Below are positions 6,609-55,577 of a DNA stretch of 64,000 bases, piece by piece. The stretch lies in assembly GCF_045037415.1 (NCBI RefSeq), contig NZ_CP173438.1; one strand, given 5' to 3'. The number at the start of each line of letters is the position of its first letter. Position 1 is the first letter of the stretch. Position numbers and translations under genes: made by a program. Source of the DNA: Escherichia coli. Its GTDB lineage: Bacteria; Pseudomonadota; Gammaproteobacteria; Enterobacterales; Enterobacteriaceae. The notes beneath the pieces were generated by a model. It did not search any database. It worked only from the letters and a program-made list of their open reading frames with translations, and was not told where the DNA came from.

Positions 6609-8294
6609 GTGAATATAAACGTCGCCGAATTGTTAAATGGGAATTACATTCTGTTATTATTTGTGGTCCTCGCGCTTGGGCTATGTCTCGGGAAATTACG
6701 ACTTGGTTCGATCCAACTGGGTAATTCCATTGGCGTTTTAGTCGTATCGCTGTTATTAGGCCAACAACATTTCAGCATTAACACCGACGCGCTTAATCTT
6801 GGCTTTATGCTGTTTATTTTCTGCGTCGGGGTCGAAGCCGGACCGAACTTTTTTTCCATTTTTTTTCGCGATGGGAAAAATTACCTAATGTTAGCACTGG
6901 TGATGGTTGGCAGTGCGCTGGTGATCGCCTTAGGGTTAGGTAAGCTGTTTGGCTGGGATATTGGCCTGACGGCCGGTATGTTAGCTGGCTCTATGACGTC
7001 GACACCGGTTCTGGTCGGTGCTGGCGATACACTGCGTCATTCCGGCATGGAAAGCAGGCAGCTCTCACTGGCACTGGATAATCTGAGCCTCGGGTATGCC
7101 TTAACCTATTTAATCGGTCTGGTGAGTTTGATTGTTGGTGCGCGTTACTTGCCGAAATTGCAGCATCAGGACTTACAGACCAGCGCCCAGCAAATCGCCC
7201 GCGAACGTGGCCTGGACACTGATGCCAACCGTAAGGTTTATTTACCGGTGATCCGCGCCTACCGCGTCGGCCCGGAGCTGGTGGCCTGGACCGACGGCAA
7301 AAATCTGCGTGAACTGGGTATTTATCGACAAACTGGCTGCTACATTGAACGTATTCGACGTAACGGGATTCTGGCAAATCCAGACGGTGATGCGGTGCTA
7401 CAAATGGGCGATGAAATAGCGTTGGTAGGCTATCCCGACGCCCACGCCCGACTCGATCCCAGCTTCCGTAACGGCAAAGAAGTTTTCGATCGTGACCTTC
7501 TCGACATGCGTATCGTCACTGAAGAAGTGGTCGTTAAAAACCATAACGCCGTTGGCAAACGTCTCGCACAACTGAAGTTGACCGATCACGGTTGCTTCCT
7601 TAACCGCGTCATTCGTAGCCAGATTGAGATGCCGATAGATGACAACGTCGTGCTTAACAAAGGTGACGTTTTACAAGTCAGCGGCGATGCCCGTCGCGTA
7701 AAAACCATCGCCGATCGCATCGGCTTTATCTCGATTCATAGCCAGGTCACTGACTTGCTGGCATTCTGCGCCTTCTTTGTTATTGGGCTGATGATCGGGA
7801 TGATCACCTTCCAGTTCAGCACATTCAGTTTCGGCATGGGAAACGCTGCCGGGTTGTTATTCGCCGGAATTATGCTGGGATTTATGCGCGCTAACCACCC
7901 GACCTTCGGTTACATTCCGCAGGGTGCATTAAGCATGGTGAAAGAGTTCGGCTTAATGGTGTTTATGGCAGGCGTTGGTCTGAGCGCCGGTAGCGGTATT
8001 AATAACGGCCTGGGCGCGATTGGCGGTCAGATGTTGATTGCCGGATTGATTGTCAGTCTTGTGCCAGTGGTTATCTGTTTCTTGTTCGGTGCTTATGTAT
8101 TGCGAATGAACCGCGCACTGTTGTTCGGCGCAATGATGGGCGCACGCACCTGCGCGCCGGCAATGGAGATCATCAGTGATACAGCTCGCAGTAACATCCC
8201 GGCGCTGGGCTATGCGGGCACCTATGCAATCGCCAACGTCCTGCTGACGCTGGCAGGGACAATCATCGTCATGGTATGGCCAGGATTAGGATAA
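6609..8294 (+). CDS. ybjL: Putative AAE-family transporter YbjL (two TrkA-C domains)
   Basis: ORF track 561 aa [20 protein letters not shown]...; first codon GTG at 6609; stop TAA 8292-8294 confirmed. Confidence 0.93.
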
Positions 8295-8335
8295 AACTGA
8301 AGTTGCCCTGAAAATGAAATTTTTTTTGCACAACC

Positions 8336-8367
8336 GCAGAACTTTTCCGCAGGGCATCAGTCTTAAT
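8336..8367 (+). promoter_or_regulatory. Sigma-E type promoter of rybB (-35 GAACTT, -10 TCTTAA)
   Basis: GAACTT at about 8339-8344 and TCTTAA at about 8361-8366 with 16 bp spacing, immediately upstream of the RybB 5-prime end. Confidence 0.55.
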
Positions 8368-8371
8368 TAGT

Positions 8372-8450
8372 GCCACTGCTTTTCTTTGATGTCCCCATTT
8401 TGTGGAGCCCATCAACCCCGCCATTTCGGTTCAAGGTTGATGGGTTTTTT
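8372..8450 (+). ncRNA. rybB: RybB small regulatory RNA (Hfq-dependent, sigma-E regulon)
   Basis: GCCACTGCTTTTCTTTGATGTCCCCATTTTGTGGAGCCCATCAACCCCGCCATTTCGGTTCAAGGTTGATGGGTTTTTT matches RybB as I recall it; ends in a GC-rich hairpin plus U-tract; lies in the ybjL-rcdA spacer. Confidence 0.85.
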
Positions 8451-8469
8451 GTTGCCTGAAATTTATCTA

Positions 8470-9006
8470 CTACCCAGCAATCCTCTCAACCATCCTCAAA
8501 ATCTCCTCGCGTGATAGCGGCTTACGGTCGGTGACAAAATGCAGCGTCATTCCCTCAATAAACGCATCAAGCGCGCGGGCGGTTCCGGGTTCAAACCATT
8601 GTTCGAGCGTTTGTTGACTGCGCTGCATCCAGTTTTGCATTACCGTTTTTAAGAGCGGTTTTCGGCTAGCCAGCGCGTAGAGCTGGTACATCAGCTCCAT
8701 ATTATCCGGCGTTGCGACCTGTGAGCTGTAGATCATATCGGTGATAGCCTGGCATGCGCCTGGAGCATCACTAACATCGCTAAAAAATGCCTGATATTGC
8801 CGGGACATGATCTCAGTAAAACGGCTGAACGCCTCCAGCAACAACTCATCAATTCCTGAAAAATAGTAGGTCATCGATCCCAACGGCACCCCGGCAAGGG
8901 TAGCAATTTTGCGGTGTGTAACAGCATGTATTCCGTAAAGTTTCACCGCCTCCAGCGTGGCCTGGATAATTTTTTCTCGTCGTTGCGGATCGTTAGCGCG
9001 ACGCAT
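8470..9006 (-). CDS. rcdA: TetR-family transcriptional regulator RcdA (YbjK)
   Basis: ORF track 8470..9036(-); ATG at 9004-9006 gives 178 aa [21 protein letters not shown]... with TetR HTH. Confidence 0.92.
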
Positions 9007-44003: not shown

Positions 44004-44519
44004 TTAGAAGCGGTAACCAACACCGGCAATCCAGGTGCCTACGTCAACGCTACGAATACGGCTCTGCTCGTAAGAGAAGTCCAGAGCAACGTTTTCCATC
44101 GGGTTGAACTGCAGACCAGCACCGTAGGAGAAACCGTAGTCGCTGGTGTCGTGTTTGTAGGTCGGGTATTCAGTGGTCTGGAATTTACCATAACCCACAC
44201 CCACTACACCGTAGATGCTTGCCCAGTCGTTAATGCGGTAAGCCGGACCAGCAGTGATGCCGTAGTACTGGTTTTTGTTGTAGTCACCAGAGCTTGCAGT
44301 ACGGCTTTTCTCGGTGTAAGTGAAAGAACCGATCACACCCAGCGGGCTGTTGTCTTCTTCATAGCGGTATTTCAGGTTGAAACCGCCCATTTTGTTCATT
44401 TGGCCCTGAGCGTCGCTCTGTGCGTAACCGCCAGTTACAGTAGAAGTCGCAGCTACGGAAGTACCTGCGGTGAAAGCCAGAACTGCGGCCAGTGCTGAAA
44501 CACATGCAATTTTTTTCAT
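44004..44519 (-). CDS. ompX: Outer membrane protein OmpX
   Basis: ORF track 44004..44525(-); 171 aa MKKIACVSALAAVLAFTAGTSVA... ending in the beta-barrel signature GVGYRF. Confidence 0.95.
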   Translation of the reverse strand: MKKIACVSALAAVLAFTAGTSVAATSTVTGGYAQSDAQGQMNKMGGFNLKYRYEEDNSPLGVIGSFTYTEKSRTASSGDYNKNQYYGITAGPAYRINDWASIYGVVGVGYGKFQTTEYPTYKHDTSDYGFSYGAGLQFNPMENVALDFSYEQSRIRSVDVGTWIAGVGYRF

Positions 44520-53190: not shown

Positions 53191-53294
53191 ACTTGCACGT
53201 ACGCTATCACGGGATTAACAGTGGCATCGCATCCGCAGAGATGCTTTCTCGTGACAGTGAAAATTTCACCATATAAGAAAAAGTCACCTGCAAA

Positions 53295-55577
53295 ATGGAA
53301 AACAATCGCAATTTCCCTGCCAGACAATTTCATTCGCTCACGTTCTTTGCCGGTCTTTGTATTGGTATTACGCCTGTGGCACAGGCACTCGCTGCCGAAG
53401 GGCAAGCTAACGCGGATGACACGCTGGTTGTCGAAGCATCAACGCCTTCGCTTTATGCGCCACAAAAATCTGCCGATCCGAAATTCTCGCGTCCGGTAGC
53501 GGATACTACCCGCACGATGACAGTGATTTCTGAACAAGTGATTAAAGATCAGGGTGCAACCAACCTTACCGACGCGCTCAAAAACGTCCCCGGCGTGGGT
53601 GCGTTTTTTGCGGGTGAGAACGGTAACTCCACCACTGGCGACGCCATTTATATGCGCGGTGCCGATACCTCTAACAGTATTTATATCGATGGCATTCGCG
53701 ATATCGGCAGCGTCTCGCGCGACACCTTCAATACCGAGCAGGTCGAAGTAATTAAAGGGCCGTCCGGCACCGACTACGGGCGCAGCGCACCGACAGGCTC
53801 GATCAATATGATCAGCAAACAGCCGCGCAATGATTCCGGCATTGACGCCTCCGCCAGTATTGGCAGCGCCTGGTTCCGCCGCGGCACGCTGGACGTCAAT
53901 CAGGTCATTGGTGATACCACTGCGGTGCGCCTGAATGTAATGGGCGAAAAAACGCACGATGCCGGACGCGACAAAGTCAAAAATGAGCGTTACGGCGTCG
54001 CCCCTTCTGTCGCTTTTGGCCTTGGTACAGCGAATCGTTTGTATCTTAATTATCTGCATGTCACCCAGCACAACACGCCAGACGGCGGCATTCCGACCAT
54101 CGGTTTACCGGGTTTTTCTGCCCCATCTGCGGGAACAGCGGCCCTGAATCATTCCGGAAAAGTTGATACGCATAACTTTTACGGCACGGATTCCGATTAC
54201 GACGATTCGACCACCGACACCGCTACCATGCGTTTTGAGCACGACATCAACGATAACACCACCATTCGCAACACTACGCGTTGGTCGCGCGTAAAGCAGG
54301 ATTACCTGATGACGGCGATTATGGGTGGAGCGTCGAATATTACCCAGCCCACCAGCGATGTGAATAGCTGGACGTGGTCACGCACGGCGAATACCAAAGA
54401 TGTGAGTAACAAAATTCTCACCAACCAGACCAACCTGACCTCGACGTTCTATACCGGCGCTATCGGTCATGATGTCAGTACCGGCGTGGAATTTACCCGC
54501 GAAACACAGACTAACTATGGCGTTAATCCGGTGACGTTACCGACGGTAAATATTTATCATCCTGACAGCAGCATTCATCCCGGCGGCCTGACGCGCAACG
54601 GCGCAAACGCCAATGGTCAGACGGATACCTTCGCAATTTATGCCTTCGATACGCTGCAAATCACCCGTGATTTTGAGCTGAACGGTGGGATCCGTCTGGA
54701 TAATTATCATACTGAATATGACAGTGCCACCGCCTGCGGCGGCAGCGGGCGCGGTGCCATCACCTGCCCTGCTGGCGTGGCAAAAGGTTCTCCGGTAACC
54801 ACCGTCGACACCGCCAAGTCGGGCAATCTGGTGAACTGGAAAGCCGGGGCGCTGTATCACCTGACGGAAAACGGCAATGTTTATATTAACTATGCCGTTT
54901 CCCAGCAGCCGCCGGGCGGCAACAACTTCGCCCTTGCGCAGTCTGGCAGCGGTAACAGTGCCAACCGCACCGATTTTAAACCGCAAAAAGCCAACACCAG
55001 CGAGATTGGCACCAAATGGCAGGTTCTGGATAAACGCCTGCTACTTACCGCCGCGCTGTTCCGTACTGATATTGAAAATGAAGTTGAGCAAAATGATGAT
55101 GGGACTTATTCGCAATATGGTAAGAAACGTGTCGAAGGCTATGAGATATCCGTGGCCGGGAATATCACCCCCGCGTGGCAGATGATTGGCGGCTATACCC
55201 AGCAAAAAGCAACTATCAAAAACGGCAAAGATGTTGCCCAGGATGGTTCCTCATCGCTGCCGTATACCCCGGAACACGCCTTCACCTTATGGAGCCAGTA
55301 TCAGGCAACCGATGATATTTCTGTTGGTGCGGGCGCACGGTATATCGGCAGTATGCATAAAGGTTCAGACGGCGCGGTGGGAACGCCAGCATTTACCGAA
55401 GGTTATTGGGTCGCCGACGCCAAACTGGGGTATCGGGTTAATCGCAATCTCGACTTCCAGCTAAACGTCTACAACCTGTTTGATACCGATTACGTCGCCT
55501 CAATCAATAAGAGCGGCTACCGTTATCACCCGGGCGAGCCAAGAACCTTCTTGCTCACAGCCAATATGCATTTCTGA
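53295..55577 (+). CDS. fiu: TonB-dependent catecholate siderophore receptor Fiu
   Basis: ORF track 760 aa; signal peptide, TonB-box region, C-terminal barrel ending ...LTANMHF. Confidence 0.96.

Follow-up and report, generated by a model that had tools for sequence, protein, structure and literature searches.

What occupies the spacer between ybjL and rcdA in the E. coli DNA analysed here, a stretch of 64,000 nucleotides called the window below, and can the RNA gene proposed for it be taken as real, complete and functional? The earlier note on this DNA had placed the envelope-stress sRNA RybB in the spacer, behind a sigma-E-type promoter and with a strong terminator hairpin at its 3' end, and had named ompX, also carried by the window, as one of its targets. 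The evidence presented below identified the feature almost certainly as rybB, in its chromosomal E. coli copy, none of the data pointing the other way, and the target assignment had to be changed. Direct reading of the sequence found every element listed in the earlier note where it had been placed. The starting point given there, 8336, precedes the -35 hexamer by 3 nt, and the promoter also includes a conserved A/T tract still further upstream, at about 8318-8327. The proposed location was borne out by the flanking genes, which were ybjL (6609-8294, + strand) upstream in the same orientation and rcdA (8470-9006, - strand) downstream in the convergent orientation, in the same order as in K-12. 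The coordinates of the individual features are collected in Table 1.

Table 1. Features of the rybB locus and the candidate target site, in window coordinates
Feature	Position	Strand	Basis and remarks
UP-like A/T-rich tract AATTTTTTTT	8318..8327	+	at -54 to -45; conservation in 110 species genomes
-35 element GAACTT	8339..8344	+	direct reading
Spacer of 16 nt, TTCCGCAGGGCATCAG	8345..8360	+	preferred sigma-E spacing
-10 element TCTTAA	8361..8366	+	gTCTTAA with G8360; sigma-E consensus GTCAAA / TCAAA
RybB sRNA, 79 nt	8372..8450	+	from +1 G8372 to U8450; Rfam RF00110; K-12 b4417 mapped by spacer alignment
Seed (5' target-recognition) region GCCACUGCUUUUCUUU, predicted single-stranded	8372..8387	+	identical to K-12; seed role from PMC5736990
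Intrinsic terminator hairpin	8406..8446	+	12-bp stem, RybB nt 35-46 with 64-75; MFE, centroid and Rfam consensus structures
U6 tail, RybB 3' end	8445..8450	+	direct reading; first two U can pair at the stem base
Candidate RybB pairing site CAGUGGC	53219..53225	+	fully complementary to RybB nt 1-7; 70-76 nt before the fiu start codon (ATG at 53295)

The 79-nt stretch at 8372-8450 begins with GCCACTGCTTTTCTTT and finishes with a hairpin and TTTTTT, and its full sequence on direct reading was GCCACTGCTTTTCTTTGATGTCCCCATTTTGTGGAGCCCATCAACCCCGCCATTTCGGTTCAAGGTTGATGGGTTTTTT. The whole 64-kb window was scanned against 4227 Rfam families at their gathering thresholds, and RF00110 (RybB) was the sole family matched. 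The match, located at 8375-8453 on the + strand, covered model positions 1-79 of 79, corresponding to the full length, with a score of 105.3 bits (gathering score 40) and an E value of 1.3e-20. The 3-nt offset of these coordinates arose because the model begins at nt 4 of the RNA and extends 3 nt beyond its 3' end. The alignment of the spacer with that of K-12 MG1655 mapped the curated ncRNA rybB (b4417, 887979..888057) exactly onto 8372-8450, and the two sequences were 100% identical from approximately -44 to +82, a range covering the -35 and -10 elements, the transcript and the terminator. Together, the covariance-model score and the perfect match with K-12 rybB confirmed that the 79 nt claimed as RybB are indeed RybB.

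A decayed non-functional relic, or a mere chance likeness to RybB, was considered as another origin of the locus, for which the only support was the lack of annotation in the automated RefSeq records. Such an origin was excluded by the Rfam score, with its E value to the covariance model, and by the identity of the transcript and core promoter to those of the experimentally studied K-12 gene; the retention of the spacer (window 8295-8469) in 5418 of 5426 complete E. coli genomes also spoke against it, and we regard it as exceedingly improbable. The lack of annotation itself was common to all automated records inspected. The window is collinear with the chromosome of E. coli SK1144 (NZ_AP018784.2, 3222198-3286197), with 3 mismatches in 64,000 bases, and automated RefSeq annotation marked no feature in the rybB spacer either in SK1144 or in 25 genomes sampled down the ranking, which included a K-12 MG1655 resequencing record. 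Among the records compared, the ncRNA rybB was annotated only in the curated NC_000913.3. The missing mark reflects the annotation pipeline and not biology; as automated RefSeq leaves the spacer blank, missing track support is to be expected and does not count against rybB.

The fold of the RNA gave further information on its 3' end. The RybB 79-mer was predicted to form an open 5' region and the 12-bp terminator stem with a free energy of -25.2 kcal/mol, compared with a mean of -16.5 for shuffled sequences (z = -3.48), and none of 200 shuffles was as stable. The terminator loop is 17 nt long and contains a 3-bp inner stem. Covariation was assessed on a MAFFT alignment of 90 sequences, 89 of which were distinct. 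In these 89, 98.6% of the cells of the 12-bp stem were paired and six of the 12 pairs had changed on both sides, for example from A-U to G-C (36 sequences), from U-A to A-U (27) and from C-G to U-A (29-30). When the 3' partner was slid by 1-3 columns as a control, pairing went down to 20-47% and the covariation was nearly abolished. The T run of the terminator was nearly invariant in the cross-species alignment, and the literature would lead one to expect the U6 tail to be the Hfq-binding 3' end. The strong hairpin claimed for the 3' end of RybB was thereby confirmed as a covarying 12-bp stem with U6. A generic terminator scan of 8200-8600, which accepted loops of 3-8 nt, returned no sites; this limit on the loop, which is 17 nt in RybB, was the reason that the terminator was missed, and the null result was rejected as evidence against it, as folding and covariation show the hairpin. 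Another predicted element did not hold up. The 5' helix of the MFE structure, formed by CCAC (nt 2-5) and GUGG (nt 31-34), was without covariation and was broken by U32A in 28 of the 89 distinct sequences. The broken, non-covarying helix is consistent with a seed presented as a free 5' end.

The same alignments bore on the coding potential of the spacer. The mechanical list of open reading frames contains two that overlap the locus, 8386-8514 (+ strand, 42 aa, TTG start) and 8269-8424 (- strand, 51 aa, ATG start), and if either encoded a small protein, the RNA features would be incidental. Across species, however, both frames were broken by indels of one or two nucleotides, located in the loop of the hairpin and behind CCCC, and the variation in the stem was compensatory at the RNA level, findings that ruled out both frames as coding. 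Moreover, the + strand frame would cross the terminator and enter the convergent rcdA, and no CDS is annotated here in K-12 or RefSeq. The chance that the spacer is a protein gene is accordingly judged to be negligible, and the locus is treated as an RNA gene in the following.

The GAACTT-N16-TCTTAA motif claimed as a sigma-E-type promoter was present as described upstream of the RNA. According to Rhodius et al. (PMC1312014), the sigma-E promoter consists of a -35 element GGAACTTTT and a -10 element (T/C)GGTCAAAA, with a strongly preferred 16-nt spacer, a discriminator of 5-6 nt, a distance of 25-28 nt from -35 to +1, a purine at the start and A/T-rich UP sequence peaking near -48/-49 and -57/-58 (PMC1312014). 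The rybB promoter fits this published geometry, with a spacer of 16 nt, a discriminator of 6 nt when counted from TCTTA (five bases, TTAGT at 8367-8371, lie between TCTTAA and the +1 G8372), 27 nt from -35 to +1, a G at +1 and an upstream A/T tract. The extended -35 element aGAACTTTT (8338-8346) matched GGAACTTTT at eight of nine positions (consensus from PMC1312014 and PMC1804206). The -10 element gTCTTA matched GTCAAA at four of six positions, keeping G, T, C and the final A; counted as TCTTA against TCAAA, the agreement was three of five only, the matching T, C and final A being those that are invariant across species. GAACTT-N16-TCWWA occurred once on the two strands of the 64 kb, compared with 0.07 expected from shuffles, and the relaxed motif [GA]AACTT-N15-17-TC[ATG][ATG]A detected no second sigma-E site in the whole window. 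A sigma-70 promoter for RybB was rejected, as no sigma-70-like site was found on the + strand of 8200-8600. On the - strand, a sigma-70-like site (8489..8460, TTGAGA-18-TAAATT, 9/12 matches) was located in the 3' end of rcdA and directed antisense into rybB; sites of this kind were not above the shuffle expectation (one found, mean 0.3).

A phylogenetic footprint was then derived from related loci, retrieved from one genome per species by an exact 20-nt match to RybB nt 2-21, which yielded at least 120 loci. Two loci were left out as chance matches to the 20-mer CCACTGCTTTTCTTTGATGT in the 298-Gb scan, without RybB sequence or a sigma-E motif. Because the retrieval required the 20-mer, seed conservation in this set is circular, and only the upstream region and the terminator provide independent information. 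The 75 nt upstream of +1 were stacked without gaps for 110 enterobacterial species genomes, spanning Escherichia, Salmonella, Citrobacter, Enterobacter, Serratia, Yersinia, Hafnia, Proteus, Providencia, Xenorhabdus and others. Positions -33 to -27 (GAACTTT) were 97-100% invariant and positions -13 to -10 (AGTC) 95-100%, while A at -7 and T at -1 were conserved in 100% and T at -4 in 98% of the genomes; the -35 and -10 elements carried approximately 2 bits per position. The -10 element varied across species as GTCATAA, GTCTTAA and GTCTGAA. The A/T tract at -54 to -45 carried 0.6-1.55 bits per position with flanks near 0, its T tract at -50 to -45 being 62-92% conserved (87-92% at -48 to -45). 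Most positions of the spacer, the length of which was fixed, and all positions upstream of -55 were below 0.7 bits. Read from this stack of genomes, the conservation pattern marks a promoter whose distance to the 5' end has been kept constant, in agreement with Fig. 1C of Papenfort et al. 2006 (PMC1804206).

Motif, geometry and conservation supported the assignment of the upstream motif as a sigma-E-type promoter, and its dependence on sigma-E in this strain would follow from the literature on K-12 and Salmonella. In Salmonella, deletion of rpoE lowers a rybB promoter fusion (rybB-gfp) to background, and RybB accumulates within minutes after RpoE induction (PMC1804206). The rybB promoter is among the strongest of the sigma-E regulon (PMC4102768; PMC12249550) and serves as a sigma-E reporter in E. 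coli K-12 (PMC12249550), in which the core promoter is identical to that of the window according to the spacer alignment.

The position of ybjL raised a different account of how RybB is made. The gene stops at 8294 on the same strand, 77 nt upstream of the RybB start, and the generic scan with loops of 3-8 nt found no terminator-like site between the two, so that ybjL transcripts probably reach the RybB terminator. RybB might on this basis be generated mainly by ybjL read-through and processing, as an sRNA derived from a 3'-UTR and not as an independent sigma-E unit. This account is hard to square with the sigma-E-type promoter, whose distance to the mature 5' end is constant and whose sequence has hardly changed in 110 species despite drift in its surroundings; moreover, rybB fusions containing only the promoter are active and strictly sigma-E-dependent (PMC1804206; PMC12249550). 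We thus consider read-through as the main source of RybB very unlikely, and transcription from its own sigma-E-type promoter is the preferred reading.

At the other end of the gene, rcdA runs towards rybB, its stop codon lying 19 nt away from the 3' end of RybB, and a terminator belonging to rcdA itself was not detected. Read on the rcdA strand, the RybB hairpin likewise forms, but there CUCCACAAAAUGG follows it, with no U tract. Without a terminator of its own and with a hairpin lacking the U tract on its strand, rcdA may therefore be read through. RcdA is an activator of csgD (PMC3535384), and the sRNAs listed as repressors of csgD include RybB (PMC6061853); if true, rcdA read-through would couple the activator and the repressor of csgD in cis. 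That transcripts from rcdA pass the RybB hairpin and give rise to antisense RNA or transcriptional collision is a speculation to which we assign a small chance. On a smaller scale, the lineage-specific T8 tract, found in the UP-like element here in place of T7, might shift the strength of the rybB promoter in an ST131-like background. As a separate observation on rcdA, an IS1 insertion splits this gene beside rybB in NZ_CP103508.1 (ST131 strain 5506), an otherwise identical ST131 genome.

The claim that ompX is a target of RybB was not borne out. Papenfort et al. 2006 used ompX as a RybB-independent control mRNA in Salmonella, which 'remained stable or increased' on RybB pulse expression (PMC1804206). 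Two compiled target lists of E. coli place ompX under MicA and CyaR and not under RybB (PMC4086111; PMC8534726), and a review assigns it to MicA (PMC5736990). For a duplex test, the 16-nt RybB seed was hybridised in silico with the region from -150 to +60 of 14 window genes, with shuffled seeds as the control. The best seed duplex of ompX (44004-44519, - strand) reached -12.7 kcal/mol, included G-U pairs and was located 131 nt upstream of the ATG; it was matched by 8% of the shuffled seeds and was thus non-significant. Given the literature and this weak duplex, ompX was rejected as a RybB target. The best duplex of the 14 genes was that of fiu (53295-55577, + strand), with -15.9 kcal/mol, a value equalled by 0.3% of the shuffled seeds. 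Of the genes in this window, it is fiu that the compilations list under RybB (PMC4086111; PMC8534726), not ompX. The heptamer upstream of fiu given in Table 1 is predicted to be the pairing site, although CAGUGGC alone occurs 13 times on the two strands of the window.

Taken together with the literature, the locus would operate as follows. Envelope stress would free sigma-E from the anti-sigma factor RseA, and the sigma-E RNA polymerase would then recognise aGAACTT (8338-8344) and TCTTA (8361-8365), 16 nt apart, aided by the upstream A/T tract. Transcription would proceed from G8372 to the intrinsic terminator (hairpin 8406-8446 and U6), giving the 79-nt RybB RNA. With Hfq, the single-stranded 5' end GCCACUGCUUUUCUUU would pair with short complementary stretches in many mRNAs, leading to a translational block and decay of the targets, and the resulting fall in outer-membrane protein synthesis would exert negative feedback on sigma-E. 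RybB is described as an Hfq-bound RNA with a short 5' seed that sends many omp and some non-omp mRNAs to decay (PMC1804206, PMC4102768, PMC5736990), and the targets listed in the literature include ompC, ompW, ompA, ompF, tsx, fadL, lamB, nmpC, fiu and rluD. Hfq-dependent stability and action, as well as accumulation in envelope stress and stationary phase, are known for RybB of K-12 and Salmonella (PMC1804206, PMC4102768). The dependence on sigma-E and Hfq, the target set and the feedback loop would be expected to hold for this copy by transfer from the identical K-12 gene and the near-identical Salmonella gene.

RybB has been characterised since 2001-2006, and the copy in the window, being identical to the reference rybB, has little value as a discovery. 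Its value is practical. A true non-coding gene was recovered from the sequence where automated RefSeq is blank, its promoter, +1, seed and terminator are now fixed in window coordinates, and the target assignment was corrected to fiu within the window, with ompX belonging to the MicA and CyaR regulons.

Several observations were made on the surrounding DNA. All three differences between the window and SK1144 are non-synonymous, located at positions 44501 (ompX), 5145 (nfsA) and 25817 (gsiB), and from SK1144 to the window they change L7V in the OmpX signal peptide, V34A in NfsA and G401C in GsiB. The ompX allele of the window had an exact 61-bp match in just 62 of 5404 E. coli records. The rybB spacer was also found at seven places on plasmid records. 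Between dinG and rhlE, the segment 61771-61968 (+ strand) is a partial pseudogene fragment of the NADAR family without the N-terminus, according to the SK1144 annotation.

Among known systems, the closest is K-12 rybB, which occupies the same place between ybjL and rcdA (ybjK). The differences from K-12 were confined to the flanks of the identical core. Upstream, the T run at -52 to -45 (8320-8327) is T7 in K-12 and T8 here, and the exact 82 nt preceding the transcript in the window (8290-8371) were common to 633 of 5420 complete E. coli records, approximately 12%. Downstream, four substitutions were located at 8456-8463, past the terminator and +82. Judged by this alignment, the rybB of the window is an already known gene that reproduces the reference allele exactly, the flanks showing no more than trivial polymorphism.

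RybB of Salmonella enterica, encoded in the STM0869-STM0870 spacer, shares with the window the family, the synteny, the sigma-E promoter and the 5' seed. It is in Salmonella that sigma-E dependence and the targeting of multiple omp mRNAs were demonstrated (PMC1804206), and the same paper states that rybB lies at the same genomic position, between ybjL and ybjK (rcdA). In the representative of S. enterica subsp. arizonae, the transcript sequence was the same as that of the window through the terminator, whereas its -10 element is GTCATAC in place of GTCTTAA and its spacer sequence also differs. The other Hfq-binding sRNAs under sigma-E control in E. coli, MicA and MicL, follow the same logic as RybB, in which a sigma-E promoter drives a short Hfq-dependent RNA that represses mRNAs of abundant envelope proteins (PMC4102768). 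They are unrelated to RybB in sequence, are encoded at luxS-gshA (MicA) and within cutC (MicL), and act on targets different from those of RybB, ompX being a target of MicA (and CyaR).
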